The notes: generated by a model not told the origin, from the letters alone. 64,000 bases of DNA from Candidatus Latescibacterota bacterium (GCA_965197905.1 CBDAOB010000004.1:1812878-1876877), one strand, 5' to 3'; shown: positions 3,077 to 43,727, numbered from the stretch's first letter. Numbers and translations: made by a program.

Positions 3077-3163
3077 GCCGAAGTGGCGGAACTGGTAGAC
3101 GCGCTGGATTCAAAATCCAGTGGGGGCAACTCCGTGTGGGTTCGAGTCCCACCTTCGGCACCA
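3077..3163 (+). tRNA. tRNA-Leu (anticodon CAA), with 3' CCA encoded
   Basis: Cloverleaf: acceptor GCCGAAG/CTTCGGC, anticodon stem CTGGA/TCCAG with loop TTCAAAA (anticodon CAA), long variable arm typical of tRNA-Leu, T-arm GGTTCGAGTCC, discriminator A + CCA. Confidence 0.85.
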
Positions 3164-19616: not shown

Positions 19617-21980
19617 CTATAGGCTGCGGGCACAGCGGAAGCCGATGGTGTAGTCGAAGCGGGAGTTTGGTCCATAAGCGAGGCGGTTGGTGGCCAGATG
19701 GATGTGGGGGTTCTGGTCGGCCAGCGAACCCCCTCGCAGGACCTTGAGCCCGGCCTCGCCAGCCTCGGTGTTCAGCGGGTCTCGAGTCGGACCGGTCACG
19801 TAATAGTCCCGCGACCACCAGTCGGCCACCCATTCCCACACATTGCCCGACATATCGAGCGCTCCGTACGGACTTGCTCCTCGCAGTTTCGAACCCACCG
19901 GCCAGGTGCTCTCCTGTCCGCACCCGTCGCCGCCGTCATCCATGACGATCCAGTCGCAATCGGGATCTTCATCGCCCCACGGGTAGCGCTGACCCTCCGT
20001 GCCGCGGGCCGCTTTCTCCCATTCCGCCTCGGTGGGCAAGCGCTTATTCGCCCACCTGCAGTAGGTGTTGGCCTGAAACCAGGTGACGGCGTTGACCGGG
20101 TGCAACGCCCGTTCCGGCTTTCCCCAGTTGGTGAAGTCGCCTTCGAAGTGCAGCCGATACGCCTCCGGCCCGCTGTACGGTTCGCTACAGGACCTGTCGT
20201 GGACGCAGGCCTCGTATTCGGCCACGGTGACTTCGTGCCGGTCAATATGGAAGGCGCTGACGAAAACCGTGCGCTCAGGCCGCTCGTCGCCGGCGCCCCG
20301 TTCGGCTCCCATGCGGAAGGGACCGGCCGCTACCAAAACCATTTCCTCCAGGTCGACAGGAAGCACCGCGCCCGCCACGGGAACATCCCCCTCCTGGCGT
20401 TGTACAAAGCGGTTTCTCTGGCGCCAGTCTGAATGCCTTCGAGCTGCGGATTCGATGCCCGGATCCGGCACCTGAGTGGCGGCAATAGTGGGACCGGAGG
20501 TGGCACAGCGCACCCCCACATACGGGTACCATCGCAGGGGCGGCATGCGGTAACGGTTTGCGGCGCGCATGTCCGGGTCCGGATCGACGTAAAACCAGCC
20601 ATTGCCGCGCAACACTTTGCGACTTCCGTCTCCCAGGTGCACCGGGTTTTCCACCGGAGCCTTGGCATAATAGCTGCGGTCGTAGTCGTCCATGACCCAC
20701 TCCCAGACATTTCCGGCCATATCCAGCAGGCCGTACGGACTTGCACCCAAAGGCCGTCCTCCCGCGGGACCGGTGCCATCATGCCCACAGCCCAGTCCCA
20801 AACCCGCACGCATCATGATGGCGCGGTCGCAATCGCCCGCTCCGCCAGGCGGGGTGTTCCCCCACGGGTAGCTAAACCCAAAGGTCCCCCGCGCCCCTTT
20901 CTCCCACTCGGCCTCCGTCGGCAGCCGCATTCCGGCCCAACTGCAATAACGCGAGGCATCGAACCAGCTGATACAGTTGGCCGGATGGTCGTCACGGTCG
21001 TCCCGTCCCCAGTTGCACGCCTCGCCGCTGGCCGCTTCGGGACAGGCGCCCGCTTCGACACACCGTCGATACTGGGCTTGGGTTACCTCGAGTTGCTGCA
21101 GGAAATACCCGTCCAGGAATACCGCGTGGGGGGGTGATTCATCCTGGTACTTTTTACTGCCCATGGTGAACGAACCGCCGGGTACGCCCAACAGCAGGGC
21201 CGATTCGCCCGACGGCAGCGGTTCATTGCGCCGTCCCAAAGAAACGGTGAGTTGGGTATCGAACTCCCGGGCAAACGGCTGGACATTCTCCCTCCGCAGG
21301 GTCTCGATCCCGATCCCCGACACCTCGACGTCGAAGCGCGCTTGCACGACCGCCTTGGGAGACCAGCTGCCCGCAGAGTGCCGATTCGTGCTCCCGTCCA
21401 ACAGGGTCAGCTTTCGACTCGCCGCGAATTCTCCCGCCACCAGGCGATAAAAATAGACCCCGGCGGCCACGGCCTGGCGCCGATCGTCTGTTCCGTCCCA
21501 AACGATTCGATAGGTGCCAGCGGACAGATCTTGATCAACGAGGCGCCGCACCCGCCGACCGAGCAGATCGTAGACCTGGAGCCCTACCTGGGTTGAATGG
21601 GACAAGTGGAACGGGATGACCGCCAGGGGATTGAACGGGTTGGGAAACGCGAAACCCAGCTGGGTCTTGGCATAGTTGGGGGAGCGTGAGGAGGAACTGC
21701 TGATGGACGTGGCAACGTCGGGAAGGGAGACGACGTAGGAACCGCTGGCAGTTGTCCGCGTCTCAAACAGGTCGCCGGAACCCTGGTCGATAAATCGCAC
21801 TGTAACCCCGGCCACCGGGTGCCGATCAAGATCGAGCCGAACCGTGCCCAAAACCTCGAACCCCCAACTGGGCAAGGCCATCCCCACTAAGACGAGGAAG
21901 TTTGCTGGACAGTGCCACCGGAGGGTTCTACTTTTCAGCAGATCGAACACCGTATCTTCTTTTTCTTCAACCAGTTCCAT
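19617..21980 (-). CDS. Secreted protein with internal FlgD-Ig/T9SS-CTD-like domain and two tandem FGE-sulfatase domains
   Basis: 'FPNPFNPLAVIPFHLSHSTQVGLQVYDLLGRRV...WDGTDDRRQAVAAGVYFYRL' beta-sandwich near the N-terminus. Two FGE-sulfatase repeats, each with 'RLPTEAEWEKxARG', 'YPWG', 'GNVWEWV', 'VLRGxxW', 'GxRCA'. Paralog of the 3325..5622 product. Start/signal peptide uncertain. Confidence 0.7.
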   Translation of the reverse strand: MELVEEKEDTVFDLLKSRTLRWHCPANFLVLVGMALPSWGFEVLGTVRLDLDRHPVAGVTVRFIDQGSGDLFETRTTASGSYVVSLPDVATSISSSSSRSPNYAKTQLGFAFPNPFNPLAVIPFHLSHSTQVGLQVYDLLGRRVRRLVDQDLSAGTYRIVWDGTDDRRQAVAAGVYFYRLVAGEFAASRKLTLLDGSTNRHSAGSWSPKAVVQARFDVEVSGIGIETLRRENVQPFAREFDTQLTVSLGRRNEPLPSGESALLLGVPGGSFTMGSKKYQDESPPHAVFLDGYFLQQLEVTQAQYRRCVEAGACPEAASGEACNWGRDDRDDHPANCISWFDASRYCSWAGMRLPTEAEWEKGARGTFGFSYPWGNTPPGGAGDCDRAIMMRAGLGLGCGHDGTGPAGGRPLGASPYGLLDMAGNVWEWVMDDYDRSYYAKAPVENPVHLGDGSRKVLRGNGWFYVDPDPDMRAANRYRMPPLRWYPYVGVRCATSGPTIAATQVPDPGIESAARRHSDWRQRNRFVQRQEGDVPVAGAVLPVDLEEMVLVAAGPFRMGAERGAGDERPERTVFVSAFHIDRHEVTVAEYEACVHDRSCSEPYSGPEAYRLHFEGDFTNWGKPERALHPVNAVTWFQANTYCRWANKRLPTEAEWEKAARGTEGQRYPWGDEDPDCDWIVMDDGGDGCGQESTWPVGSKLRGASPYGALDMSGNVWEWVADWWSRDYYVTGPTRDPLNTEAGEAGLKVLRGGSLADQNPHIHLATNRLAYGPNSRFDYTIGFRCARSL

Positions 21981-22013
21981 CTCACGCTACGAACAGCAGC
22001 AAGCTCCGTCAAC

Positions 22014-25000
22014 ATGCTTCCTGTCTCAGCTGCAGCCCTGCTCACGCTGTTTCTAGCGGCGCGGTGTGGCGCGAATCAGTTAGAGCTGGTGGCCAGTGAT
22101 GCCATTGGCCTCACCGTCGAGTTTCGCCAAACTGCTCAGCCTCCCATCGAGCGCCAGATTCAGGGTAAGCGGTTCCACGAGCTCTCGGTGTCCGGCCCCC
22201 GGCCTCTGGCGCCAGGGATCCCTTCGGTGCCGTTTCGGTCGACGTTGATAGCAGCGCCTGCCGGTTCCGGGCTCCGTCTCGAGGTGCTTGAGGCGCACTA
22301 CCTGCAGTACGAAGAGATCGACCTGCTGCCGGTGGTAGCGGCCATTGCCAGCGACGGGGGGGTCGAACTGTTCCGCCGAGATCCGCTGGCCTACGGCACC
22401 GACACCTTTGGGCCGCCCGAACTGGCTACGAGCGAGTTCCTCGGCATCCAACGAGGGGTCCACTCGCATCGGTTACAGCTACACCCGTTTCGGTACAATC
22501 CGGTGCGGCGGGTGTTGCGAGTGTTCGATCGGCTGGTCATTCGGGTGCACTTCGTAGGGGGCCGCCTTTCGAAGGTGCCGCCTATCGGCGCTCGACGTTC
22601 CCCCTTCCACGGCCATTTCTTGAATCCCGTTTATCCGGCGGCGCGTCGGCCGGTCGCCAAAACGAGTCAGAACGAATGGTACGATCGCACCCAACCATGG
22701 GTGAAGCTGGTGGTGGACCGGGACGAGCTGTTTCGCGTCGAGAGGGGATTTCTCGAGGGGTTGGATCTCGACTTGAATGGGGTCGATCCGCGCACGTTTC
22801 GGCTCTTCCACCGGGGACGCGAACAGAGGGTATTCGTCTCGGGGGAAGAGGACGGCATCTTCGATAAAGGGGATTTCCTCCTTTTCTACGGTCAGTTTCG
22901 CCGCGACGATCGCGATTTCGACAGCATTTTCGGTCGGCAGAACACCTACTGGCTCACCTGGAGTGGCGAGCGGGGACGGCGCTTCGTCGAACGGGACGGG
23001 GCTCCCACAAACCAGTTTCCCGAGTCGATCTATCACTGGTCGACGGCTCACTTCGAGCAGGATCTGTGGTATGACCCGCTACCCGATGCGCCGGACAATC
23101 TGCGCGATCACTGGTTCTGGGATCAGCCGGTCTTTGCAACCAAACCGGACGTGCCTTCCTCGCGCATATTCGCCCGCGACCTGAGCTATCCCAAGCTCGA
23201 CGAAGAGTACACGGCGCGCCTTCGCGTGGCTCTCCACGGAACGACCAATCTGGGCCATCATACGGTGGTAAAACTGAATAACAAGGAGATCGACGACGCC
23301 ATCTGGGAGGGCCAGGTGGAACGTAGATTCGAGCGCGAAATCCCCAGCAACTACCTGCGCGACGGCACCAACCGGATCCTGCTCCAAGCTTTCGCCGATC
23401 AGGCAAAGTGGGACCAGGTGTTTTTCAACTGGTTCGCGATCGATTACCGCAGGCTCTACCGCGCCAAGGTCGGTTTCTTGTCGTTTGAAAGACCGGCCAT
23501 CCCCAGCGGGGAAAGGATCTCAATTGGTGGTTTTCACAACCGCAAGATACAACTATTCGATGTGGCGAATGGGATCCGCTTCACAAGCATAGAGGTCGAC
23601 TCGACCGAGACTGGAATCGCTGCGACCTTCGAACATCGATCGGCGGAGGTTGCGGCCTTCGTGATCGTCGACAGCACCCGGATTCTCAGCCCCGCCGGCT
23701 CCGTTGACGAACCCTCCGCTTGGCGCACACCAGATCGCGCCGCGGACTATCTCATCATTACACACCCGCTCTTCGTGGAATCGGCGGAGCGCCTTGCCCG
23801 CCACCGCCAACGCAACGGTCTGACCACGGCGATCGTTAGCACGGAGGATATCTACGACGAGTTTTCGTTTGGCCTTTTTGATCGCGATGCGGTGAAGGCG
23901 CTGGTTCAATACAGCTATGATTTCTGGGAAACGCGGCCGACCTACCTGCTGCTCATGGGGGATGCCACCTTCGACTACCGCAATCTCTTCGGCGGCGGAG
24001 CCCCAAGTTTCGTGCCCAGCACATATTACCACGCCCGCAACCGGGGCCATGCCCCGAGCGACGTTCCGTATGGATTCCTAGAAGGGGACGACCTTCTGCC
24101 CGACTTGGCCGTGGGCCGTTTGGCCGTCGGGTCGCCCGAGGAAGCGGCAGCGGCGGTGGAAAAGATCATCCGCTACGACACCGAACCCGAACCGGGTCCC
24201 TGGCGCGGCCGCGTCGTCTACGGGGCCAACTACCACGCTCGGGGTCTCTTCACCGAACCCAGCGACCGCCTCGCGGACCGCTATACCGAACCCTTGGGGC
24301 TGCAATCGATCAAGGTCTACAACGAAGATAACGCCCCCATTCCCAACGCCACGGGGAAGCGATTCCTCGATGCCCTAAATGACGGTGCGCTGCTGGTCAA
24401 TTTCAGCGGCCACGGCAGCGCCGGCACCATGCAGTTTCTGTTCTCCCTGCAATTCCCGGACTGGGATTATCTGAGCCAGGTGAACAATGACCGGCGTCTG
24501 CCTCTGGTGCTGGCGCTTTCCTGCCTGAACGGCATGTTCGCCAATCCCCACGTGGAGAGTCTGGGGGAGGTTTTCACCGACAAACCCACGGGGGGTTCGA
24601 TCGCGTATATCTCCGCTACAGCTGAGAGTTTTGTCGCCCAGAACGAGCTCCTGGGCGAGAACCTGTTCGCAGAATTGTTTGAACGGGGGAATCTGGCGTT
24701 CGGGCTGAGTCTCAACGCCGCCAAGACCCAGGTCCTGGCCGCCCATTCCAGTTTCAAGGAGGCGGTACTGACCATGCAGCTTTTCGGGGACCCGGCGCAG
24801 AAGCTGGCCCTGCAGCGCGCGCCCGATTTTGTGGCTGCGCACCTCAGCGTCCCGTCGCAGGCGCTGTTCCCAGGGGAAAGGACATCGATCGAGCTGGGAC
24901 TGGAAAACCACTCCATTTCTACCCCAGACAGCGTTCGCGTGCTGCTCCTGGCCCACCCTCCAACGGGGTCCGATCCCGATACCTTGCTCGACCGCCAACA

Positions 25001-27518
25001 ACCCGGCTTCACCGAGGAGCAATCGCTTTCGGTGCCCTGGTCTATCGGCGTCGCCGGGAGTTATCACCTGGAGATGTTTCTCGATCCGGACGGCGAGACC
25101 GCCGATGAAAAACCCTTGAACAACAGCTACCTGTTAGGCGTTGAAGTTCTGGAGCCCTTGATGCCGATACCGGGATCTCCAAAAACGCATGCTGTGCTAC
25201 AGTCAAATGGCATCGCACTGACAGCTCTGCTGCCCATCGATGCCGGCGCGCTCGAGTGCGAGTTTGCGCTGTCCACGGGCTCCGAATTCGCAGCAGGCAA
25301 CACGACCTTGTCTCCCGCCGTCGTCTCGAGGAACGGTCTGGCCACTCACGAAGTGACCGTCGAAGAAGAAAGGGTCTACTTCTGGCGCGCCCGTATCCAA
25401 CGCAACGGATCAGCCGGTCCGTGGAGCGCACACCGGTCATTTTCGATCTCCAGTGAACCGAATCCCCCGGACTGGCGTCAGTCAGGTAAACAGTTTGTCG
25501 ATGCGAAGATAAACCCCTTGGAACTCGACCCGCGCGGTGGGTTGGTTTTGTCTCCGACCAAGCAGCCCTTCCGCATGACCGGTGCCCAGCGGGAAGGGTG
25601 GTTTACCGTAGCCGAGCTCGAGGGCGCCGGCGTCGTCTGCACGGATGGGAGCTATCTCTACGCCAAACGCTGGTTCAACGACCCATCCACGGTTTATCCA
25701 GGCAGCGACTATTTCACTCGGATCGGAACCGGATTCAACGGCACTTCGGCCGGAGTGGTCTACGACACGCTAGCTGATTCCACCACCGCCGGCATCTCGG
25801 CCACCTACCACAGCGATGGGTTCATTTACAACGAAAGCGGGCGCGCCTTCGAGTTGGAGCGCATCGCAGTTTCGACGGGAAGAATGGACACCGTCGAGGT
25901 TCCGGATGGGCTGGTGGAGTGGAAGTACGGTCGCGTGGAAGAGGGGCACTCGTTACTGACCTCCGACGGGAAACACATTTACAATGTCTCCATGAGCTCA
26001 GAAGCGGGCACGCGCAACGAGTGGCGGGTGCGGGTCTTCGATCCGGTAAACGGGTGGGCGTTGGTACGCGATTTTACCTCTCCCCCTACGGAGACCGGTT
26101 TCACCTACAAGTGGACCGATGGGGTTATCGCTGATACCGAGGACCTCTATTTCATCGAGTTCAGCGGTGGCCACCGCGTCCGACGAGTGCACCGCGCCGA
26201 TGGCGCCGTGCGAGACGAGTCGGTGGGGGATCAGGATTCTACCCGAATCGTTTCGGGCCAGTACGACTGGGTCAATAATAAGGTGTGGCTTGGAGACCTC
26301 TTCGGACCCACCATCTACCGCTATGCTGGAGGGGAGCGCGTCGAGGATGCCGAATTTGTCTCGCCAGCCATTGGGCCAGCGGCGGAATGGAGCTGGGTTG
26401 CACTCAACGGCACGGCTCCGGTGGCGCCAAACCTGCGCATCGATCTGCTCACCCGCAGCGCGGTCGACGGCACCTGGATGCCCTTGGAGGGCTTTTCCGA
26501 TCTGTCTCCGAACGGGTCGATAGATATCAGCTCGGTGTCGGCGGCCACCCATCGCTATCTCAAGCTGCGGGCGAGATTCTCTGGGGCGGCCGCCGCCACC
26601 CTGCACGACTGGTCGGTACGGTACACACCGCTGCCATCCCTGCAGGTAGTCACCGCCACCGGCGAGGTAGATTCCTTGATGCGGATCGAGGCCGTAGTGC
26701 GGATCCTGGAGCCGCCAGCCAACGATCCGGTCGTGATCCAGGTGGAGAATGCCGGAGGCACCGTTCTGGCCGCGCAAACCATCACCGATCTCTCCAATCC
26801 AGGTGCCGCGCAGGTGATACGTTTCGACGGCCTGCCGCCACCGGGGCCGCAAGAAGAGCGGTTCGTGCGCCTGGTCACCGCCCAGCCAGACGCGGATCCG
26901 CAGGACAACCGGCTCGCGGTAACCTTTCCGCTCTCAGCTGCTCCGACGCTTGTTGTTGTGCCTTCCGGTCGGGCTTTTCAAGACGGGGACTTCTTGCGAC
27001 CGGACGAAGCCCTGTGGATTCTCCTTGCCTCCGCGCCCGAGACGGTCGAGTTATTGGTGGACGAGGTCCATGTAGAGGCCGACTCGATACGAAACGACGA
27101 CGATGGGGGTTTACGTCTGCTCTACCGATCAACGGCCCCCGAAGGAAGACACCACCTGCTGATCAGGACCGGTGATCTGAGCGGCGGCAACCGCGACTGG
27201 TCCTACCAGTTCCTCTTGCGCGACGATCTTAGCATCGCTCAGGCGCTGGTCTTTCCAAACCCCGTGCAAGAGAACGCCGACTTTACCTTTTCCCTCTCTC
27301 ACGACGCCAAGGTGACGGTGCAGGTGTTCTCGTTGAGCGGACGCCTAGTTCGACGCCTGGGCACGGAGGAACAGCTCGCGGGATTCTGCACAGTATCGTG
27401 GGACGGTCGCGACGAAGACGGCGCACGGGTGACCAACGGCACCTACCTCTACAGAATTGATGCCCACAACGGGGCCGAAGGAGCAGTGGTACGGGCAGCG
27501 CTAACGGTGGTGCGCTGA
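22014..27518 (+). CDS. Giant gingipain-like cysteine peptidase (family C25) with C-terminal T9SS-type sorting domain
   Basis: Signal peptide MLPVSAAALLTLFLAARCGA (ATG 22014; the track ORF starts spuriously at 21912). C25 catalytic region 'ADYLIITHPLF...YLLLMGDATFDY...VPYGFLEGDD..PDLAVGRL', 'NFSGHGSAG' (His), 'LSCLNGMFAN' (Cys). Long beta-rich middle/C-terminal region. Last ~90 aa 'LVFPNPVQENADFTFSL...VQVFSLSGRLVRRL...WDGRDEDGARVTNGTYLYRI' is a por_Secre_tail-type CTD. Confidence 0.7.
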   Translation: MLPVSAAALLTLFLAARCGANQLELVASDAIGLTVEFRQTAQPPIERQIQGKRFHELSVSGPRPLAPGIPSVPFRSTLIAAPAGSGLRLEVLEAHYLQYEEIDLLPVVAAIASDGGVELFRRDPLAYGTDTFGPPELATSEFLGIQRGVHSHRLQLHPFRYNPVRRVLRVFDRLVIRVHFVGGRLSKVPPIGARRSPFHGHFLNPVYPAARRPVAKTSQNEWYDRTQPWVKLVVDRDELFRVERGFLEGLDLDLNGVDPRTFRLFHRGREQRVFVSGEEDGIFDKGDFLLFYGQFRRDDRDFDSIFGRQNTYWLTWSGERGRRFVERDGAPTNQFPESIYHWSTAHFEQDLWYDPLPDAPDNLRDHWFWDQPVFATKPDVPSSRIFARDLSYPKLDEEYTARLRVALHGTTNLGHHTVVKLNNKEIDDAIWEGQVERRFEREIPSNYLRDGTNRILLQAFADQAKWDQVFFNWFAIDYRRLYRAKVGFLSFERPAIPSGERISIGGFHNRKIQLFDVANGIRFTSIEVDSTETGIAATFEHRSAEVAAFVIVDSTRILSPAGSVDEPSAWRTPDRAADYLIITHPLFVESAERLARHRQRNGLTTAIVSTEDIYDEFSFGLFDRDAVKALVQYSYDFWETRPTYLLLMGDATFDYRNLFGGGAPSFVPSTYYHARNRGHAPSDVPYGFLEGDDLLPDLAVGRLAVGSPEEAAAAVEKIIRYDTEPEPGPWRGRVVYGANYHARGLFTEPSDRLADRYTEPLGLQSIKVYNEDNAPIPNATGKRFLDALNDGALLVNFSGHGSAGTMQFLFSLQFPDWDYLSQVNNDRRLPLVLALSCLNGMFANPHVESLGEVFTDKPTGGSIAYISATAESFVAQNELLGENLFAELFERGNLAFGLSLNAAKTQVLAAHSSFKEAVLTMQLFGDPAQKLALQRAPDFVAAHLSVPSQALFPGERTSIELGLENHSISTPDSVRVLLLAHPPTGSDPDTLLDRQQPGFTEEQSLSVPWSIGVAGSYHLEMFLDPDGETADEKPLNNSYLLGVEVLEPLMPIPGSPKTHAVLQSNGIALTALLPIDAGALECEFALSTGSEFAAGNTTLSPAVVSRNGLATHEVTVEEERVYFWRARIQRNGSAGPWSAHRSFSISSEPNPPDWRQSGKQFVDAKINPLELDPRGGLVLSPTKQPFRMTGAQREGWFTVAELEGAGVVCTDGSYLYAKRWFNDPSTVYPGSDYFTRIGTGFNGTSAGVVYDTLADSTTAGISATYHSDGFIYNESGRAFELERIAVSTGRMDTVEVPDGLVEWKYGRVEEGHSLLTSDGKHIYNVSMSSEAGTRNEWRVRVFDPVNGWALVRDFTSPPTETGFTYKWTDGVIADTEDLYFIEFSGGHRVRRVHRADGAVRDESVGDQDSTRIVSGQYDWVNNKVWLGDLFGPTIYRYAGGERVEDAEFVSPAIGPAAEWSWVALNGTAPVAPNLRIDLLTRSAVDGTWMPLEGFSDLSPNGSIDISSVSAATHRYLKLRARFSGAAAATLHDWSVRYTPLPSLQVVTATGEVDSLMRIEAVVRILEPPANDPVVIQVENAGGTVLAAQTITDLSNPGAAQVIRFDGLPPPGPQEERFVRLVTAQPDADPQDNRLAVTFPLSAAPTLVVVPSGRAFQDGDFLRPDEALWILLASAPETVELLVDEVHVEADSIRNDDDGGLRLLYRSTAPEGRHHLLIRTGDLSGGNRDWSYQFLLRDDLSIAQALVFPNPVQENADFTFSLSHDAKVTVQVFSLSGRLVRRLGTEEQLAGFCTVSWDGRDEDGARVTNGTYLYRIDAHNGAEGAVVRAALTVVR

Positions 27519-28945: not shown

Positions 28946-29075
28946 CGTCTCAAGGCTCGCGACTCGAAATCCCCGGGTAGGGTGCGGCGCTTGGGTGGTT
29001 TTGCAGTTGACCCATTGATTCGTGCAGGTATTTTCAAGGGTGTCCCTACCCTCACCTCACAAGGAGAACACGACG

Positions 29076-29366
29076 TTGACCCCGACCATAAGTGTGCGCC
29101 ACGACAAGGTTTCTGATGCCACTCGTGAGTACATCGAAAAGGCGTGCGAAAAGTTTGGTCAGTACTACGATCGGATCGTCGAATGCGACGTTGTAGTCGA
29201 AAAACAGAAGAAGGGAACGCAGGTGGAAATCGTTCTGAAGGTGCCGCAGCAAACCCTTACTGCTTCTTGTCTTGAGGAGAATCTCTACAAAGCTGTGGAC
29301 GCCGCTAAGGAACGAATAGAAACCCAGCTCAAGAAGTATCACGACAAGAACGTTGCCCACCGTTGA
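29076..29366 (+). CDS. hpf: Ribosome hibernation-promoting factor / RaiA (short HPF)
   Basis: 'ISVRHDKVSDATREYIEKACEKFGQYYDRIVECDVVVEKQKKGTQVEIVLKVP...LYKAVDAAKERIETQLKKYHDK' follows the HPF/YfiA pattern. AAGGAGA RBS at 29061..29067 followed by TTG at 29076; the track ORF begins upstream at an unlikely ATG. Confidence 0.6.
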   Translation: MTPTISVRHDKVSDATREYIEKACEKFGQYYDRIVECDVVVEKQKKGTQVEIVLKVPQQTLTASCLEENLYKAVDAAKERIETQLKKYHDKNVAHR

Positions 29367-29387
29367 TCTGGGCGGGGGTATCTGCAA

Positions 29388-29415
29388 CCGGTCTGGCCCT
29401 GGTCAGGCCGGTTTT
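29388..29415 (+). terminator. Rho-independent terminator after hpf
   Basis: 9-bp stem CCGGUCUGG / UCAGGCCGG (two G.U), loop CCCUGG, followed by TTTT. Confidence 0.5.
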
Positions 29416-29433
29416 CTTGTGTACCACCTCTTC

Positions 29434-29462
29434 TTGACATGCCCAAACGGGCAACGTATGAT
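29434..29462 (+). promoter_or_regulatory. Consensus sigma70 promoter for the secretin gene (TTGACA-N17-TATGAT)
   Basis: Perfect -35, 17-nt spacer and a TATGAT -10, placed 38 nt upstream of the ATG at 29500 and directly after the hpf terminator. Confidence 0.5.
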
Positions 29463-29499
29463 GGGAAAAACGCGGTCCCTGGGAAAGAAATTCGGAACT

Positions 29500-31935
29500 A
29501 TGAGATATCGGCGTCCTGCCCGTTTTCTGCTGTATTTCGCCCTGTTCTCTCTGCCCATCCAGGCGCAGGCGACCGTCGATTTCGTTGTCTCGCCGCTGTC
29601 GTCCCGTTCTAAGAACATCCGTTTGTTCGAAGCGGCAGATACGCGGGTGATGCTGCCAGCGGGATACGCCCGCGATCCGTCCGCGGCCGCTTCGATGGCA
29701 CTCAGAGCGGGAACCGTCGACGCTCGCGTCTATACAAAACCGAACCTCGACGGCGGTGTGCTGTCGCTGGAGCTTGCCCTCGTGCGGGGCATTACGGCGG
29801 GATACGAATTCGCCCTGTTCAGCCCGGACGGTGAAACCGCGGCCGACGACGATCTGGCGGAGGTTGCCAGGCGCTTGAAGAGGCTTCGCAAGGCGAGCGC
29901 AAAGGTGTCGCGGGGCAAGCCCGAACTAGGCTACGAGATGGTCCGCCTGGGAAACATCGAAGCCGACCGCGCCCTGGCATTGCTCAAGTCCCTGGGCTAC
30001 AGCACGGTGGAGTTCTCCAGCAAAAGCAAGACCCGCGAAAAGGTCTTCGATATCAAAGGCGACCGCGACGCCGACCTGCCTCGGGTGGTCAAGGTCATAA
30101 ACGACTCCAAGACCAGCCTGTTGGAGGCCGATCCAAGCGGGTCCGCGCGCAAATCGACTACCAGCAAAAGCAAGGGCGTTCAAGGTGCTCCACAGCTGGG
30201 AGGTTCGCACCTGCACAGCACCACCACCGGATCGCCGCAGGAACGTCTCCTAATCATTTACGACAGGAACGAGCTGGAGGCGCTGGAGAAGCTGATTAAC
30301 GTATTGCGCACCCAGATCGATGTTCCGGCGCAGCAGATCGTCATCGAGGCGCTGGTCATCGAGGTGAATACCAACCGCTTGCGGGATGTGGGGGTCGAGT
30401 TGACCGGTTCGAAGAACCACGTAAAGGGGTCGTTCTCGCGTCCGGAAGGAACGACCGGCAACCCGCTTACCACGCTTCTGTTCTCGCGCGAGACCTTCAC
30501 GGATTTCCTCTCGTTGAAGGGGAAGCTGGAGGCTCTCGTCGAGGTCGGTGATGCGGAGATCCTGTCCAGTCCTTCGGTGTTGGTGCTCAACGACCGTCAG
30601 GCCCGGGTGCAGGTGGGTAGGCAGATACCGATCGTGCGCTCGACGACCCCCACCGCCGGGACGACGGTCAAAGGCATTGAGTATTTCCCCATCGGCATCG
30701 TGCTTAACCTCCGACCTCGCATCAACCTGGACCAGAGTGAAGTGACGATTCAGATCGAGACCATTATCAGCTCCATCTCGACCGAATCCGCTACCAAGCT
30801 AGAAGACGGCATCTCGGAGGATATCTCGTTTGCGCCCATTGTCGACAATCGAGTGGTCGAAACCTACATCAGAGTCGCGGACGGAACCCCGTTCATCATC
30901 GGCGGATTGCTGTCGACCGAACGCTTGGACAGCAAAGTGGGCGTGCCGTTTCTGTCGGCCGTGCCGTTTTTGGGCCATCTGTTTTCCCGCAAGCGGGTAG
31001 AGAACACCCAGCGGGAGGTTATCGTCGTCATCACGCCGCACATCGTTCCGCTGGAGGCGCGGAATTTTAGCTACCTCATCCCCAAGGATTCGGACATTTT
31101 CGACCGTTTCGACACGCGGCTTTTTCGCAACGCCTATCGCGTGCGCGACGACGACATCTGGGACCTGAAGTTTATCCGTCAAAGCCCAGCCCTCCAATCT
31201 CTGCTGACAAAGGTGCGCCGGAGTGCCGCAGACAACGTGATGTTGCAGCGCCAGGAACCCTTCAAGGGCTTGCTCGCGGGTGAGATTCCAGGGGAAGAGG
31301 TGCTGGTGCGCCGCATGCTGCGAGACATCGTGAAGAAGCTCGAATTCGGCCAGGAGATCGAGACCGAAAAGGTGTTCTTCTTCGAATCCTCGAACGCGGC
31401 AGGGGCCGAAGTCGATCTGGTCGACCGCGGACTGGATGAGGTGGTGGCGCCGGTCCTGGAGGTGCCTGAGGGCGCGGTGCTGTTGACTTTCGGCGCCCAA
31501 GACGAACCCCGGTCGGGACAGTCCTTCAGCTACCCCTCGGCGGTGGTGCAGGATACCATCGTGCCCACCGACGAGAAGGAGTTGGTCGCGTTTCTGCGAC
31601 AGCTGAATCCCCTCGACGACCAAGGGCGGCCGTTGCGATGGACCATCGTGCTGGCCAGCGCCGCCGACGTGGCGCAGCTCCAACGGGTGCTGGTTCTCAA
31701 ACGGTTGCTCGAGCTCAACGGCAATTTGCGTTTGAGTCTGCAGTCGTTCCATGCCGGGCTGCAGATTCTGTTTCCCACCCGCGAGGATATGCGCAACCGG
31801 TACCACCTGATCGACGGCGAGGTAGCGCAGCTTTTCTACGAGACCTCACCCAACCAATACTATCCTGCCTTTGAGCGAATCTTCAACCGCACCGCCCAGA
31901 CCGCCGAAGACTACCTGCGATCGGCCCGACCATGA
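29500..31935 (+). CDS. Secretin-family outer-membrane channel protein (GspD/PilQ-like) with ~300-aa C-terminal extension
   Basis: Signal peptide MRYRRPARFLLYFALFSLPIQAQA. N-domain-like region ('GYEMVRLGNIEADRALALLKSLGY'). Secretin domain 'IVIEALVIEVN...', 'AEILSSPSVLVLNDRQARVQVGRQIPI', 'DGTPFIIGGL', 'VPFLSAVPFLGHLFS', 'VIVVITPHIV'. The C-terminal 300 aa have no recognisable similarity. Confidence 0.7.
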   Translation: MRYRRPARFLLYFALFSLPIQAQATVDFVVSPLSSRSKNIRLFEAADTRVMLPAGYARDPSAAASMALRAGTVDARVYTKPNLDGGVLSLELALVRGITAGYEFALFSPDGETAADDDLAEVARRLKRLRKASAKVSRGKPELGYEMVRLGNIEADRALALLKSLGYSTVEFSSKSKTREKVFDIKGDRDADLPRVVKVINDSKTSLLEADPSGSARKSTTSKSKGVQGAPQLGGSHLHSTTTGSPQERLLIIYDRNELEALEKLINVLRTQIDVPAQQIVIEALVIEVNTNRLRDVGVELTGSKNHVKGSFSRPEGTTGNPLTTLLFSRETFTDFLSLKGKLEALVEVGDAEILSSPSVLVLNDRQARVQVGRQIPIVRSTTPTAGTTVKGIEYFPIGIVLNLRPRINLDQSEVTIQIETIISSISTESATKLEDGISEDISFAPIVDNRVVETYIRVADGTPFIIGGLLSTERLDSKVGVPFLSAVPFLGHLFSRKRVENTQREVIVVITPHIVPLEARNFSYLIPKDSDIFDRFDTRLFRNAYRVRDDDIWDLKFIRQSPALQSLLTKVRRSAADNVMLQRQEPFKGLLAGEIPGEEVLVRRMLRDIVKKLEFGQEIETEKVFFFESSNAAGAEVDLVDRGLDEVVAPVLEVPEGAVLLTFGAQDEPRSGQSFSYPSAVVQDTIVPTDEKELVAFLRQLNPLDDQGRPLRWTIVLASAADVAQLQRVLVLKRLLELNGNLRLSLQSFHAGLQILFPTREDMRNRYHLIDGEVAQLFYETSPNQYYPAFERIFNRTAQTAEDYLRSARP

Positions 31936-31958
31936 GAGGTAGGCAAAAAGGAATTCGG

Positions 31959-32412
31959 ATGATGTGTTTTACCACCTGCGTTCTGCCCTTCCTGTTGCTG
32001 GGATTGACGGCGTGCTCGGAACCGGGGCGGCAGGTCACCCGCTCCACCGAAAACGGAGCTTTTGCGCTCACCCTGAAAGCGAAGAGGGGATGGGTCAGAG
32101 TGAACGAGGTCCTGCCGATCGAAGTAAAACTGGTCAGCTTGAACGGTCCTCTAGACGACGGATTGGACGAGGAGATCGAGTTTCTGGTCAACAACGGGTC
32201 TCTCGACGAGGACGAGCTGGACGCAGTGCTCGAAGCACCTGACGACGAACACCCCGCGGCGACACCACCTTCCGTGCGTGGATCAGTTTCGAAGCCGATC
32301 CGGAGACCTCGACGGTCACCGAAAGCCAGGGGGAGATACACGCCCTGTTCCGCGACGTGCTGGCGACCTTGAAGATCCGCATCGTCGCCTCTTCTGACGA
32401 TCTCAACAATTA
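31959..32412 (+). CDS. Small lipoprotein (possible frameshift near 32245-32280)
   Basis: Lipobox LLLGLTAC|S. Coding potential appears to continue in another frame ('...FRAWISFEADPETSTVTESQGEIHALFRDVLATLKIRIV...*' ending 32412), while the track frame stops at 32372. 23 nt downstream of the secretin gene. Confidence 0.35.
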
Positions 32413-32672: not shown

Positions 32673-37265
<4,593 letters not shown>

Positions 37266-38782: not shown

Positions 38783-39811
38783 TCAGAACATCCCCGGTGC
38801 CCGCGGCGCGGCGCGGTCGTAGATCGAAGGCTGCCCCAGGGTGTCCAGCAGTGCGCTGATCGCGGGGAACATCAACTCCGCTTGCTCCACCGTCAGGGTG
38901 CTTATCTGTCGGGCGCGGCGGTGAGACACGATGGCTGCCTCGTCAGCAGCTACCACCTCTAGCGTATCGACTACACCTTTGTCGTCTTCCAGCAAAACCG
39001 TGCGCGCACCCTCGACCCCTACGTCGATCTCTCCAGCCGCCAACAGTCTGTCGTAACGCAACCGGGACAGATAGCTCAAGTAGGCGTACACGCTGTTGTC
39101 CACACAGGTCGTATCCTGACCGGCCCAACGCGTGCGCCAACGGTAACTCGGTCCGCGAAACGAACGGCTACCTGCAGGATCGGTAGGAACCTCTTCTCTC
39201 CACAAAGATCCCAACTCGGTGGCACGACCGGGGAATGTGATCCGCACGATGGCGCTGCGCGGCAGCGCCTGGGGCAACAGGTGGCGATCTATCATCGGAA
39301 CCGCTGCCTCATCAAGGGCCAGCCTGGGATTGGCATGCAGATGGAATACCGTATCCTCCCCTGCCCTGCGGAAGTAAGACTCACTCCCGAGAGCGCCAGG
39401 AATACCTCGACCCACTTCTGCAGCGACGATGGTTCGTCCTCGTTCATCCAGTACCGCCACCTCGATCGCATCCTGAGCACCAAACCCGAATCCGTGCGCG
39501 GTGTGTCCGTTGTCGGCGACGATCGAACCGCTGCTGGTCATCACACACCTGAGCAGCTGATCGACTCGCTGGCGCTGCGCATACGCATCGAAATAGGCCG
39601 GGTAGCGCCAAACACTGTCCCGCAACACATACGCCCATCGCTGTCCGCTTCGGGCGACGCGGAGCGTTTGCGCCCGTTGCGGATCGATCCCCACCACCGG
39701 ATGCACACTACCCGCCAGATTCCGCTGAGAAGCGGCGCTCCGATCCAGGGCGAAGTCGACCACTAGAAGAAGGCCGAGCACCGCGGCGAGAACGATCAGA
39801 TGTCGTTTCAT
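38783..39811 (-). CDS. DUF4340-like periplasmic protein (last gene of GldG-type ABC cluster)
   Basis: N-terminal TM anchor, beta-rich body. 4-nt overlap with the GldG-like gene; position matches the DUF4340 partner commonly found after gldG. Confidence 0.5.
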   Translation of the reverse strand: MKRHLIVLAAVLGLLLVVDFALDRSAASQRNLAGSVHPVVGIDPQRAQTLRVARSGQRWAYVLRDSVWRYPAYFDAYAQRQRVDQLLRCVMTSSGSIVADNGHTAHGFGFGAQDAIEVAVLDERGRTIVAAEVGRGIPGALGSESYFRRAGEDTVFHLHANPRLALDEAAVPMIDRHLLPQALPRSAIVRITFPGRATELGSLWREEVPTDPAGSRSFRGPSYRWRTRWAGQDTTCVDNSVYAYLSYLSRLRYDRLLAAGEIDVGVEGARTVLLEDDKGVVDTLEVVAADEAAIVSHRRARQISTLTVEQAELMFPAISALLDTLGQPSIYDRAAPRAPGMF

Positions 39812-42800
39812 ACCATCATCATCGGGGTGCGGCGGCGGCGGTAGCGAACACCCCCCAGGGCCAGGAAAGCCAGCGGGGCGCTACCCACAACGATCAGGCG
39901 CCACCACGCCTTGGCCTCGGGGTCCTGGTGCGCAAAACCTCGGGGCGTGCTGCGACGGGCTTGCAGCGCGGCCATCTCCCCGCCGAACGCCAGCTCCGCC
40001 ACCAGATTCAACAAGAGCTGATCGTGTTGGAAACCGGGGGCTGACAGGTATCGATTCTTGAACATCTCCGAACTTCCGACCAGCACCAGTTTTCCCGACG
40101 GCTGAGATCGATCGACAGGACCAAGACGAAAATCTACCCGTGTTTCCTCCTTCTCCAGGACAAGGGACGGAAACCGACCTTCGATCGACACGGCCAGCGG
40201 CTGCTTGGCGGGCAGGAATTCCTGTGGGGTGAAAATCTGCGGCGGTAACCAACCACCTTTCCATGGATAGGACCAGACGCGATCAGAGGTGGAGATCAAC
40301 ACGTGGTGTTGCAGGTTGTAGGTGGCCAAGCGGCCTCGATCGAAGGCAAAGCGGTTGCCCCAGACGAAAAGCAGGTCACCCAACCTCCGGGTGATCGCCA
40401 AGTCCGGCGCATAGTTGGCTCCCACGGTTCGAATCAAGAACGGCAATGCCACCTTCTGCGGGTCGTACTCCCTGATCGCCCTTCGATTGACCTGCGTCTC
40501 CAGCTCCAGGTGATGCTGTGTTTGATCCATCAGCACTTCCCGAACCTGCTCGATGCCCAACAGGTTCAGATAAACCTCGGCATCTTGAAACTGCGGTTGG
40601 GGCCAGTACACGGTGTGAAATCCGGTGCCTCGGTACTGGCGCTGCTGAATGTTGAAATGCTGCTGCGCGATGAGAACGTGCCCGCCGCTGGTGAGGTACG
40701 GTCCCAGTTGTTTGAGCACCGGGGTGGCGTCCCGCCTCGGCTGCAGCCAGATCACCACATCGGCATCCATCGGCAAAAGCGGGTTGCGCGGGTCGACGTG
40801 GGAAACGCCGTATCCGTAATCGAGCAGCAGCGATTTCGCAGCGCTGTAGACATCAACCCCCTTGGGAGGGATCAGGTTCTTCTTGTGAAAGTCCTCCAGC
40901 GCCTCTGCGGGAGATAGGCGTGGCAAATCGGAGACGATAGCCACCCGGGGTCCCGCGCCTGTTTGCCGACGGTGCAGGGCGGCGAGCAGCAGGAACTCCA
41001 TATGTTCGACGGTGCGTTCATCTAATCGGGGGATAACCTCCACCTCATCCCCGACGCCCAAGACCAGGCCGCTCCACACTCTTTCGGTGAAGACGGAATC
41101 CTCGCGCACGACTTCGGTCTCAAAAGCTCTCAGTCCACGATTTCCCAGACGGCGGAGTTCCGGCTCTGGCATCTCGTCCGGACCGCGGGTCTGAAAGTCG
41201 ATGCCGAGCCTGCCCAACAGAAAACGCGCGCGTTTCTGCGCTCGCTTCAACGTCGTTGGCAATGTCGAGCTGGGGCTGCTGATCAGGATAGTTTGCGGCT
41301 GCGGGGCTGCCGACAACTGCCGGCGAGTAAGAGGGGCGGGGGAGTGGGCCCCACTGGCGGTGACATCCAGGTAGAAGTCGCCTCGCTGCCGCCAAAGAAG
41401 ACCTCCCAGAACAATCACGCCCAAGCCGAGGCCAACGCGGATCGCCAACCAGCGCGTCAAACCCAAGTCCACCCGCGGCCGTGTCGGCAGATATCTGCGG
41501 ACCACGACCGCGACCAACAGCGCCGGCAACAGAAATACGACCACCAGACGCCACCAGAATCTTGCGCCCGTGCCAACAGAAGGCAATGTTTCCGGTACGA
41601 CTCGGCGCATCCGCGCCTGCACAAGGCGATCGGCGGAAGAGAAGGTGCGCAGCAAGGTGCGCAGAAAGACTCGGTGAGCATAACCCGGCTGGTTGATAAT
41701 CCCATCCTGGAAGAGGGCGGGGCTGCTCAGCACCACGAGCTGACCTGCGAGGGGGTCGGCAGGTTTGAGCAAGACGGCGAGATTCTGCTTCGGGACCCTG
41801 AGATGGGGCTGTAGATCCGCATCCGCAAACGGGCCGGGAGGCAGGGCACGAACCCAGGTGTTTCCCGTGGTTGTGGCGATCACCTCGGGAAAGAAGCCGG
41901 CTTCGCCGGCACGGACGGGATTTACTTCCAAAGAGCTGGCTGAGACGAAATTGAGGCCGCCTCGAGCCGGTCCATGAAAACTCTTCAGGTTGTAGAACGC
42001 GGGGAGGCAGCGAATGTGAAACGGGGCTACCACTTCGCTCACGGAACCCTCTCCCGCATACAACGGCACCGGGCCGGTACTGGCGTCCATCAACAAATCA
42101 GGCAGCGGCCGCAGGCCGAACGGGGCCAGCAACAGCTCCCAATCGGGCGGCTGACGAAAGGCGCGGTAGCTGATCGCGTCTCCCGCGAACTCATACCCGA
42201 CAGAATAGGAGCTCCCGGCGAGCAGGGCGGTTCGGCCCGAGGCCAGGAAATTCTTGAGTTGCTGTATATGAGCGGGTGTGACGCCGGCCGGTTGCACCCA
42301 GAAGAGCACATCTACCTCGCGCGGGATGTCGCTCTGGTGTTCCAGGTCCAGATGAACCACATCCCCCTGCTCGGCCAGGAAATGGGCGAGCAACTGAAAC
42401 TGTTCGGGTGCCGCCAGGGCGAAGGTCGGGCGCCGGGGATCGAGCTTGGCGCGCAGGTGGTGGATGACCAGCTGTTCGAGATGGGGCAGATGGGCCGGTC
42501 CGATGCCCTGAACAAGAATCTCGGGGTGACCTTCCAGGGCCAAGACCAGAGATGACCAGACGGTCTGTTCGCTGGTCTGGTCGTGAACCACGCGCTTCAC
42601 GGTGACGGGAGATGCCTTCTTCCGCGCTGCGTAAACGACGCCATGGGGCTCGTCCAAACTCGGATCGAGCACCCGGTATTCGATCTTATCCGGCGCCTGG
42701 GCGTGCAACGCGCGCAAGAACCGCACGACCTGAACCTCCACATTCTTGAGGTGAGAAGGCATCCGGTCCTTCGCCGAGACAAAGAAGGTGAGGGAAAGAC

Positions 42801-43014
42801 GGCGATCCAACCGTCGGAGAAAATCTTCGGTGTCGACGCCCAGGCTTCCGGGCTCCCTGCCGGCCAGGTCCACCTGTAACCACGACGCGCGTTCTAGCAC
42901 CATGCGGTTGGACAGGACAGCTGTAGCAAGAAACAGGGCAAAAGCGAAAAAGAGGTAGGCGTAAAACCGACGCTTCAATACTTGCTCCGTTGCAGACTCA
43001 GTGCGGTCATCCAA
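39808..43014 (-). CDS. GldG-like ABC transporter auxiliary protein, duplicated (two ABC_transp_aux modules, 1068 aa)
   Basis: N-terminal TM helix, two repeated large periplasmic modules each followed by a TM segment (~aa 470-500 and C-terminal 'WWRLIVVGSAPLAFLALGGV'). Sits between a GldF-like permease and DUF4340. Confidence 0.55.
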   Translation of the reverse strand: MDDRTESATEQVLKRRFYAYLFFAFALFLATAVLSNRMVLERASWLQVDLAGREPGSLGVDTEDFLRRLDRRLSLTFFVSAKDRMPSHLKNVEVQVVRFLRALHAQAPDKIEYRVLDPSLDEPHGVVYAARKKASPVTVKRVVHDQTSEQTVWSSLVLALEGHPEILVQGIGPAHLPHLEQLVIHHLRAKLDPRRPTFALAAPEQFQLLAHFLAEQGDVVHLDLEHQSDIPREVDVLFWVQPAGVTPAHIQQLKNFLASGRTALLAGSSYSVGYEFAGDAISYRAFRQPPDWELLLAPFGLRPLPDLLMDASTGPVPLYAGEGSVSEVVAPFHIRCLPAFYNLKSFHGPARGGLNFVSASSLEVNPVRAGEAGFFPEVIATTTGNTWVRALPPGPFADADLQPHLRVPKQNLAVLLKPADPLAGQLVVLSSPALFQDGIINQPGYAHRVFLRTLLRTFSSADRLVQARMRRVVPETLPSVGTGARFWWRLVVVFLLPALLVAVVVRRYLPTRPRVDLGLTRWLAIRVGLGLGVIVLGGLLWRQRGDFYLDVTASGAHSPAPLTRRQLSAAPQPQTILISSPSSTLPTTLKRAQKRARFLLGRLGIDFQTRGPDEMPEPELRRLGNRGLRAFETEVVREDSVFTERVWSGLVLGVGDEVEVIPRLDERTVEHMEFLLLAALHRRQTGAGPRVAIVSDLPRLSPAEALEDFHKKNLIPPKGVDVYSAAKSLLLDYGYGVSHVDPRNPLLPMDADVVIWLQPRRDATPVLKQLGPYLTSGGHVLIAQQHFNIQQRQYRGTGFHTVYWPQPQFQDAEVYLNLLGIEQVREVLMDQTQHHLELETQVNRRAIREYDPQKVALPFLIRTVGANYAPDLAITRRLGDLLFVWGNRFAFDRGRLATYNLQHHVLISTSDRVWSYPWKGGWLPPQIFTPQEFLPAKQPLAVSIEGRFPSLVLEKEETRVDFRLGPVDRSQPSGKLVLVGSSEMFKNRYLSAPGFQHDQLLLNLVAELAFGGEMAALQARRSTPRGFAHQDPEAKAWWRLIVVGSAPLAFLALGGVRYRRRRTPMMMV

Positions 43015-43727
43015 GCGAAGAAGGAGCTCAACAACGCGAAGTAGAGGATATCCGCACCGCCTATCACACCGCGGCTGAACGCCTCATAGTGAGGCATGAC
43101 CGATATGGATTCGTAAAGCCAGGTGCCGAACTGGGCGCTCGGAGCCAACCCATCGACCACCTCCACGACCTTGTCGTGGCCACTCAGCACAAAAACGAAA
43201 CCGAGCAAGGCGCCGAGTACGAAGGCGACGATCTGGTCATGGGTCAGACTGGACACGAACTGGCCGAACGCCAGGAAGAATGCGCCCAGGAAAAGCGCAC
43301 CTAGATAACTGGCGAGAATCACCCCCATGTCCGGGTCGCCGAGCCAGGCGAGCATCACGACGATGGGAAAACTTCCCAACAACACCAGGGCATAGAAGAA
43401 AAAGGAGGCCAGGTATTTTCCCAGCACGATCTGCAAGGGGGTCAGCGGCAAGGTCATCAATAATTCGAAGGTGTTCTGTGCCCGTTCCTCCGCCCAACTG
43501 CGCATGGTAATTGCCGGCACCAAAGGAATGAGCAGGAACGGCAGGATTTCGAAGTAAGGACTCATGTCCACGACAGCGTTGAGGAAAAAGGAATTCATGA
43601 AGATGGTCGCCGAGAGACCGAGAAAGACGCTGGCGTAGACATAGGCGATGGTGGAATCGAAGTACGCCTCCAGCTCGCGCCTAAACACCGTTCTGACGCC
43701 GGACGCGAACCCCTTGAAATCAGCCAC
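42975..43727 (-). CDS. ABC-2 family transporter permease (GldF-like)
   Basis: 250 aa, six predicted TM helices. Overlaps the ATPase gene by 8 nt. Confidence 0.65.
   Translation of the reverse strand: MADFKGFASGVRTVFRRELEAYFDSTIAYVYASVFLGLSATIFMNSFFLNAVVDMSPYFEILPFLLIPLVPAITMRSWAEERAQNTFELLMTLPLTPLQIVLGKYLASFFFYALVLLGSFPIVVMLAWLGDPDMGVILASYLGALFLGAFFLAFGQFVSSLTHDQIVAFVLGALLGFVFVLSGHDKVVEVVDGLAPSAQFGTWLYESISVMPHYEAFSRGVIGGADILYFALLSSFFAWMTALSLQRSKY

Follow-up and report, generated by a model that had tools for sequence, protein, structure and literature searches.

A secretin with a conserved C-terminal domain in a Latescibacterota genome, and its possible role as a pilus-independent outer-membrane duct

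Introduction

Secretins are known as the portals of type II secretion systems (T2SS), type IV and Tad pili, type III secretion systems (T3SS) and filamentous phages. Canonical GspD and PilQ genes are usually found within gsp or pilMNOPQ operons, and PilQ and HofQ set a precedent for import through a secretin. Different machines have repeatedly co-opted these proteins (Denise et al. 2019, PMC6668835), and the secretins PilQ and GspD are required for the secretion of slime, a non-protein polymer, in cyanobacteria and myxobacteria (Zuckerman et al. 2025, PMC12475490). Here, we describe a secretin gene with a long C-terminal extension in a 64,000-nucleotide (nt) stretch of DNA from a Candidatus Latescibacterota bacterium (GCA_965197905.1, CBDAOB010000004.1:1812878-1876877; hereafter the window), together with the small lipoprotein gene that follows it. 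We propose that the secretin gene is functional and belongs to a secretin family, so far undescribed, that provides a pilus-independent outer-membrane duct serving inner-membrane transporters, a reading to which we assign roughly a 50% probability. A full-text literature search returned no account of a secretin family with this C-terminal extension, of fusions between ATP-binding cassette (ABC) exporters and secretins, or of secretins linked to cyclic-nucleotide-binding (cNMP), TLC or MscS genes.

Results and discussion

Similarity to described secretins is confined to the core

The window protein contains a nearly complete Pfam Secretin domain (PF00263, amino acids [aa] 345-516, E value 1e-38, 132.9 bits against a cut-off of 27.5, profile positions 1-168 of 169), and a Pfam scan of the protein found nothing beyond it. 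Scores against the curated NCBIfam families of individual systems were far lower than required: 156.8 bits against a cut-off of 351.35 for GspD (TIGR02517; aa 212-516 aligned to profile positions 269-590), 113.6 against 284.35 for PilQ (TIGR02515), and, again over the core only, 101 against 238 for SctC, 119.5 against 250 for MshL and 64 against 554 for HofQ. Sequences in the PDB behaved in the same way. XcpQ, PilQ, ExeD, pIV and RcpA matched aa ~170-520 with E values of 1e-18 to 1e-13 (GspD-type chain 5wln, 1e-18; PilQ-type 6ve2, 5e-18; RcpA 8odn, 4.6e-13, core only, RcpA having been compared as a PDB chain only), and none reached past residue 520. Database records label homologues of this gene GspD, PulD or CpaC; because the scores fall under the curated thresholds, we consider the GspD and CpaC labels on family genes unjustified.

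On either side of the core the protein departs from the described types. The initial annotation had noted recognizable N-domains, and one N3-like unit does precede the secretin domain, but the N-terminal ~180 residues are taken up by a domain specific to the family, and N0/STN, Secretin_N and N1-N2 domains were not detectable there. It had likewise placed the end of the secretin domain near aa 560, in good agreement with the Pfam boundary at aa 516 (about aa 565 in the numbering of the longer 860-aa reading frame), followed by some 300 residues that could not be placed. We find 295 such residues (aa 517-811), without a match in Pfam, NCBIfam or PDB sequences. In an AlphaFold2 model built from a 29-sequence alignment, aa 543-810 adopt an alpha/beta fold with a mean predicted local distance difference test score (pLDDT) of 85.6 and a predicted template modelling score of 0.83, whereas the first 32 residues of the extension are strongly conserved in sequence and of low model confidence. 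The predicted fold had no structural match in the PDB, so that on this model the C-terminal domain would have a new fold, and the extension was assigned to known domains neither by the domain profiles nor by this structure comparison. In the full-length model (pLDDT 79), a confident N-domain (aa 25-200) is followed by a disordered linker (205-244), an N3-like beta-alpha-beta unit (248-290), the secretin domain and the extension.

The extension is the signature of a large secretin family

With the full protein as query, we recovered >120 clusters at 90% identity, ~800 aa in length, with 82-100% query coverage and 48-95% identity; their named sources were Latescibacteria/Latescibacterota, "Gemmatimonadota" metagenome-assembled genomes (MAGs) and the marine nuHF2 cluster. 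We then built a profile restricted to the extension (alignment A1, of which the window protein is the first sequence) and compared it with 1.8 billion cluster representatives, which gave 350 matches at E<=1e-3 (clusters at 50% identity), 167 of them at E<=1e-30. Among the best 150 representatives, the extension directly followed a secretin domain in every full-length protein. A scan of one genome per GTDB species, based on a narrower alignment (A4) and its peptide LFR[DN]AYR[IV]R, confirmed the family in 230 species genomes from five or more phyla, including Latescibacterota, Candidatus Handelsmanbacteria, Terriglobia and other Acidobacteriota, Opitutia, Verrucomicrobiales, Kiritimatiellota and Phycisphaerae. 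A hidden Markov model (HMM) of the N-domain (window aa 25-204, with the window protein as first sequence of the underlying alignment) matched all classes of the family, in Verrucomicrobiota by its C-terminal part only, and a few members carry N-terminal AMIN domains.

The extension is therefore the signature of a large multi-phylum secretin family (Latescibacterota, Acidobacteriota, Verrucomicrobiota, Kiritimatiellota and Planctomycetota), and the window protein has the family's order of parts, namely the family-specific N-domain, the secretin domain and the C-terminal domain of ~290 aa. This revises the earlier view of the extension as a peculiarity of this gene; an extension common in the family had been named among the conditions that would refute the earlier reading, but the family is itself undescribed. 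Per-position conservation in the extension matches that of the secretin core, reaching 0.72-0.81 at aa 511-570 and 751-780. Compared with the 87%-identical relative L004, the ratio of nonsynonymous to synonymous substitution rates (dN/dS) was 0.097 overall (secretin core, 0.05; extension, 0.10; N-domain, 0.12; linker, 0.047), from which we conclude that the secretin is under strong purifying selection.

Relatives are fused to, or encoded beside, inner-membrane transporters

The most direct pointer to function comes from proteins in which a complete ABC exporter and a family secretin form a single open reading frame (ORF). Such fusions, with ABC_membrane, ABC_tran, secretin and C-terminal extension in one ORF, were seen in 17 of the best 150 representatives and at 11 genome loci (L073, L074, L076, L079-L081, L083, L085, L086, L088 and L006; proteins P0185, P0196 and P0208 among others). 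They are 1450-2037 aa long, the N-terminal ~580 aa being the exporter and the secretin lying C-terminal to it, and the fusion gene stands alone in its locus. The arrangement is not an artefact of MAG assembly, since the isolate Poriferisphaera corsica, whose genome is closed, also has it (WP_200761202.1/QDU34446.1). In 15 of 16 fusions a single hydrophobic segment with basic residues before it, resembling a signal peptide, comes right after the nucleotide-binding domain (NBD), and the family N-domain starts just past it; the segment is followed by a lipobox in 6 of the 16 (for example LIGVAGC in P0185) and by an AxA-type site in several others. A segment so placed is what the secretin part would require to cross the inner membrane, and it suggests cleavage by signal peptidase I or II; such cleavage would also reconcile an ABC dimer with a secretin ring of 12-15 subunits. 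The exporter part belongs to the generic MsbA/HepA/HlyB class and falls below every equivalog threshold, so the substrate cannot be read from it. We also considered a lipid anchor in cis for family members that lack the lipoprotein and rejected it, because only those six fusions have a lipobox and the relatives beside TLC/HEAT or MscS-like genes (types B and C below) have ordinary signal peptides.

To place the remaining relatives, we called ORFs in 86 non-redundant loci and clustered the neighbours within 6 kb. No T2SS, type IV pilus, Tad, T3SS (gsp, pil, tad, sct) or phage partner recurred in this set. A motif scan of the same loci detected one T2SSE-like Walker-A ORF and a few prepilin-like ORFs in Planctomycetota loci; prepilin-like genes are probably abundant in members of this phylum. 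Four kinds of context could be distinguished.

In type A (29 loci of Latescibacterota type, the window included), a gene for a lipoprotein of ~148 aa lies immediately downstream at a median distance of -3 nt (an ATGA overlap); hpf, pntAB and gltBD around the pair represent shared synteny with no obvious functional link to the secretin. In type B (25 loci from Verrucomicrobiota, Acidobacteriota, two Latescibacterota and others), the adjacent gene on the same strand encodes a membrane protein of ~700-1090 aa whose N-terminal half is of TLC type (resembling ATP/ADP transporters) and whose C-terminal half consists of HEAT repeats, both confirmed with Pfam. A cNMP-binding domain, either fused or as a separate protein of ~145 aa, is present in 19 of these 25 loci. 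A class-I cyclic-nucleotide phosphodiesterase (PDEase_I) accompanies the TLC/HEAT protein in 11 loci and is adjacent to the secretin in 17 overall, directly after it in Opitutia. Instances of the TLC/HEAT and cNMP module occur across L036-L078 (L064:5214-12197, L041:7880-14360 and L054:731-7887), and the Opitutia PDEase_I is of eukaryote type (E value 1e-53). Type C comprises three loci (Kiritimatiellota, one Opitutia and Anaerohalosphaeraceae) with an adjacent MscS-like channel, two of these channels being fused to a cNMP-binding domain, and type D the 11 loci of Phycisphaerae and other Planctomycetota in which ABC exporter and secretin share a single ORF, here of 1450-1600 aa. A membrane-fusion protein or TolC was not seen beside any family member in the neighbourhood set, and a separate adjacent ABC exporter, looked for in the non-fused relatives, was not found.

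The window subfamily has all three protein modules in common with the transporter-associated subfamilies. In the type A locus L015, a TLC-like gene starts 169 nt after the lipoprotein gene; its family is small (17 database matches) and restricted to marine Latescibacteria. Another locus, L089, has a TLC-like gene beside a HEAT and cNMP-binding protein but no secretin, which indicates that type A lineages own the TLC and HEAT-cNMP module, usually unlinked. An HDOD-HD protein (L089:3991-4845) is encoded just upstream of that module, and the window contains a response-regulator-HDOD protein (12090-13331, plus strand); this may be coincidence.

Consistent with the initial annotation, the gene is locally an orphan: a Pfam scan of the large ORFs in the 64-kb window revealed no T2SS, type IV pilus, Tad, T3SS or phage-morphogenesis gene. 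A search of the window for TLC, HEAT-cNMP, MscS and ABCB genes found none, the only hit being the generic NBD of an ABC-2-type transporter. That transporter cluster (38783-44487, minus strand) consists of an ATPase (43720-44487), a permease (42975-43727), a 1068-aa GldG-like ABC_transp_aux protein (39808-43014) and an unannotated 342-aa ORF. This cluster, 6 kb downstream of the secretin unit, shows synteny with L004, and there is no evidence of a link to the secretin.

Organization of the secretin gene

The only long ORF at this position opens with a TTG codon and runs from 29353 to 31935 on the plus strand (860 aa). The promoter-like element within it spans 29434-29462, and translation must therefore start 3' of 29462. 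The ATG at 29500 is kept in L009 and L004, the closest two relatives, and gives an 811-aa precursor (29500-31935, plus strand), signal peptide included, in place of the 812-aa mature protein first reported. The unit is organized as follows.

29386-29413, plus strand: intrinsic-terminator-like hairpin after hpf (12-pair stem with 7 GC pairs, 4-nt loop, then the T-run TTTTCTTGTG)
29434-29462, plus strand: sigma-70-type promoter-like element TTGACA-N17-TATGAT (11 of 12 consensus matches in a consensus scan)
29500-29571, plus strand: secretin signal peptide, aa 1-24, MRYRRPARFLLYFALFSLPIQAQA, of signal peptidase I type (cleavage between IQAQA and TV) and without a lipobox, as read from the sequence
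29572-30111, plus strand: family-specific N-terminal periplasmic domain, aa 25-204
30112-30240, plus strand: low-complexity linker, aa 205-247, predicted disordered (pLDDT <50), with the conserved motif GAPxLGGxHLH (consensus of a 72-sequence alignment)
30241-31047, plus strand: N3-like ring-building unit and secretin domain, aa 248-516, the outer-membrane channel core
31048-31932, plus strand: C-terminal extension, aa 517-811, a highly conserved linker of ~30 aa (containing SFSYLIPKDSDIFDRFD and, two residues on, LFRNAYRVRDDDVWDL) and then an alpha/beta domain of ~265 aa
31932-32412, plus strand: small outer-membrane-type lipoprotein gene, its ATG overlapping the secretin stop codon (ATGA), with a 2-nt insertion at ~32256-32257; the repaired product is 159 aa

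Upstream lie hpf (29022-29366, Ribosomal_S30AE) and a citrate synthase gene, and downstream gltB (32673-37265) and gltD. The previously described terminator after hpf is indeed present as a hairpin with a 12-bp stem at 29386-29413, recurs with few substitutions in L009 and L004, and insulates the secretin unit from hpf. The promoter had been called perfect; the element is there and is conserved in those two relatives, but it matches the consensus at 11 positions and not at all 12. Both hexamers are identical in L009, and in L004 the -35 hexamer is identical and the -10 hexamer reads TCTGAT. Up to the secretin ATG, the leader is about as conserved as the coding sequence in both relatives, and the element would plausibly act as the promoter of the unit. 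Almost all relatives of types A, B and C have signal peptides of AxA type equivalent to that of the window secretin. In the MAG records L009:8389-10888 and L012:8463-10882, whose isolate names are UUID-style, the secretin ORF is in two pieces, probably through assembly indels and not as pseudogenes.

A paired lipoprotein gene that has been disrupted twice

The lipoprotein reported 23 nt after the secretin is real, with the lipobox LGLTAC, but its ATG at 31932 overlaps the secretin stop codon as in most relatives. The pairing is conserved as well: the lipoprotein gene lies immediately 3' of the secretin in 29 of ~32 Latescibacterota-type loci. After repair, the window product aligns end to end with 28 intact homologues, whose common features are a universal lipobox (L-x-[AG]-C), conserved beta-strand-like blocks and, immediately behind the cysteine, an EPD motif. 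Neither it nor its homologues matched any Pfam, NCBIfam or PHROG family, pilotin families included. What is expected of a pilotin gene, a small outer-membrane lipoprotein encoded with its secretin, is seen here in the lipobox, the overlapping start and the recurrence in 29 loci.

The frameshift suspected from the start is borne out by two extra nt within CACCCCGCGGCG (~32256-32257) relative to L004 and L009, deletion of both of which restores the frame. An independent contig, L005, carries the same insertion, which makes an assembly artefact unlikely. L009 and 27 further loci have an intact copy, and in L004 (L004:12454-12929) the gene is broken by a different 2-nt insertion ~140 nt upstream of that in the window. 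Against L009, the repaired gene has a dN/dS of 0.26. The disruption is probably real and recent and has probably occurred twice in the marine lineage, and it may reflect a relaxed need for the lipoprotein accessory there.

Other features of the window

A group II intron occupies 15392-17191 on the plus strand, with a reverse transcriptase/maturase ORF at 15392-17065 (RVT_1 and GIIM) and an Rfam Intron_gpII domain V/VI match at 17093-17191. It is located directly 5' of a Hepar_II_III_C ORF (17090-18571), and because L004 has an 829-aa heparinase-like gene, the intron may interrupt the gene here. A 1868-aa protein (21912-27518, plus strand) ends in a FlgD_ig-type sorting domain as found on cargo of the type IX secretion system; its counterparts in L004 and L005 combine Propeptide_C25, Peptidase_C25 and FlgD_ig and are gingipain-like. 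Further FlgD_ig/CHU_C-tailed proteins are encoded at 7735-9504 and 19617-21980 (both minus strand), and these several tailed proteins suggest that a type IX secretion system operates in the organism. NfeD and two paralogous FloA (flotillin-like) genes lie at 18-983, 1489-2478 and 6808-7704 (plus strand), and between them are a full-length sigma-70-family sigma factor gene (5853-6704) and a tRNA-Leu(CAA) gene (3077-3163).

A duct for inner-membrane transporters and its alternatives

We propose the following mechanism. The secretin core would assemble, as its homologues do, into a multimeric gated outer-membrane channel. Since the extension starts at the position of the GspD S-domain in established secretin structures, it would be periplasmic, forming an extra ring or skirt outside the barrel, and its conserved linker, disordered in the monomer model, probably clasps neighbouring subunits in the manner of an S-domain. 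The gene fusions and gene neighbourhoods of the relatives point to a channel that would serve as the duct of an inner-membrane transporter, with no part in type IV filament machines, T3SSs or filamentous phages. Candidate transporters would differ by lineage: an MsbA/HepA-like ABC exporter in Phycisphaerae, a TLC-like/HEAT protein in Verrucomicrobiota, Acidobacteriota and two Latescibacterota, or an MscS-like channel. In the window lineage, the lipoprotein, seemingly co-translated with the secretin, may be an assembly or targeting factor (pilotin-like) or a gating accessory. Because relatives are fused to an ABC exporter or adjoin TLC-like or MscS-like proteins, an inner-membrane partner encoded elsewhere in the genome is likely, and the initial suggestion of a stand-alone channel becomes doubtful for the same reason. 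More tentatively, and at somewhat less than even odds, the secretins with this C-terminal extension might together constitute an unrecognized class of trans-envelope transport, as ducts of ABC, TLC-like/HEAT or MscS-like transporters often under cyclic-nucleotide control, with N- and C-terminal domains that couple or gate and with the window gene as the Latescibacterota version equipped with a lipoprotein accessory.

Several observations weigh against this proposal. No inner-membrane partner is adjacent to the secretin in the window or in ~28 other loci of Latescibacterota type, and the subfamily's link to transporters would run through homology at ~30% identity and the single locus L015. The ABC, TLC-like and MscS-like neighbours vary by lineage and could be unrelated neighbours and not parts of one mechanism. 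None of the transporters has an obvious periplasmic part that would reach the secretin, and no adaptor of the membrane-fusion type was seen beside them. Without cleavage of the fusion, the stoichiometry of an ABC dimer is at odds with that of a secretin ring. An accessory lipoprotein that is broken here and independently in L004 would be odd if essential. Lastly, the search of this genome for T2SS and type IV pilus genes covered the large ORFs of the 64-kb window.

That last point bears most on the best-surviving alternative, that this is an ordinary T2SS or type IV pilus secretin whose partner genes are elsewhere in the genome, a location with which a search of this extent is compatible. On this account the extension would be an enlarged S-domain for pilotin docking, peptidoglycan anchoring or ring stabilization, and the lipoprotein would be the pilotin. 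The best NCBIfam and PDB sequence matches are indeed GspD/XcpQ and PilQ, homologues are annotated as GspD, PulD or CpaC, the extension begins exactly at the S-domain position, the lipoprotein pairing is pilotin-like, and AMIN domains, typical of PilQ, occur in some members. However, the scores lie far under every curated cut-off, the N-terminus is family-specific with no detectable N0/STN or Secretin_N domain, no gsp, pil or tad neighbour recurs in the 86 loci from five or more phyla, and relatives are fused to ABC exporters. We consider this explanation unlikely.

We regard as less probable still a stand-alone gated outer-membrane pore for large solutes, polysaccharide or DNA that has no inner-membrane partner and in which the N- and C-terminal domains act as gate, sensor or anchor. 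It would fit the two-gene unit with its own promoter-like element and upstream terminator, the ~28 Latescibacterota-type loci and the fusion-free Anaerohalosphaeraceae locus without an adjacent transporter besides MscS, as well as the involvement of secretins in the secretion of non-protein slime (PMC12475490). It is difficult to reconcile with the ABC fusion and with TLC/HEAT-cNMP and MscS genes tightly linked on the same strand in ~40 loci; moreover, a pore as large as a secretin would be costly if ungated or self-gated, and no energy source or gate-opening partner is evident.

A phage origin, as raised in the initial annotation, or a decaying relic without current cellular function is very improbable, and the former we reject: PHROG 1012 (M13 protein IV) does match (E value 5e-44) and both the window and L004 have a frameshift in the adjacent lipoprotein gene, but the match is limited to the generic secretin core at aa 209-516, no relative of the extension was found in 2.9 million viral contigs, no phage genes are present among the scanned window ORFs, the secretin has a dN/dS of 0.097 and a conserved promoter-like element, and its place between hpf/pntAB and gltBD is constant across Latescibacterota.

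If a duct serving inner-membrane transporters is the correct reading, it would represent a fifth use for secretins, add two new domains to a heavily studied family, and offer a candidate route for substrates across the outer membrane in some Planctomycetota, Verrucomicrobiota, Acidobacteriota and Latescibacterota.

Comparison with known systems

GspD (XcpQ, ExeD, PulD) is the nearest described type, sharing with the window protein a homologous N3-like unit and secretin domain, a Sec signal peptide, an appendage at the S-domain position and a small lipoprotein partner, as with pilotins. In contrast to GspD, the window protein scores under half the family cut-off and has no detectable N0, N1 or N2 docking domains; its appendage is 295 aa long with an unmatched fold, where the S-domain of GspD comprises a few dozen residues, and its relatives are fused or linked to transporters, with no recurrent gspC-M neighbours in the 86 loci. 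To PilQ, HofQ and ComE the likeness lies in the secretin core and in the AMIN domains of a few family members, whereas the window protein lacks AMIN (Pfam), has no recurrent pilMNOP-like neighbour, and continues beyond the secretin domain with which PilQ ends. It does not belong to SctC, RcpA/CpaC, MshL or HofQ, and no genes of those systems were found among the large window ORFs scanned or as recurrent neighbours in the 86 loci. Phage pIV, at ~400 aa, has no C-terminal domain, and the neighbours in the window are chromosomal housekeeping genes.

Other comparisons concern the manner of anchoring and of working. The 6 of 16 Phycisphaerae fusions with a lipobox directly before the secretin part would be liposecretins in the manner of HxcQ, whereas the window type has a separate lipoprotein, without similarity to known pilotin families, whose role as a pilotin is putative. 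The slime nozzles are PilQ and GspD of otherwise canonical systems, and PMC12475490 describes neither a C-terminal domain nor a transporter fusion. Type I secretion and tripartite efflux differ in that the outer-membrane component here is a secretin and not a TolC trimer, no membrane-fusion adaptor was found, and the window has no ABCB-type exporter; in mode of working, however, they offer a likeness, for the Phycisphaerae relatives join an exporter of the MsbA/HlyB class to an outer-membrane channel.

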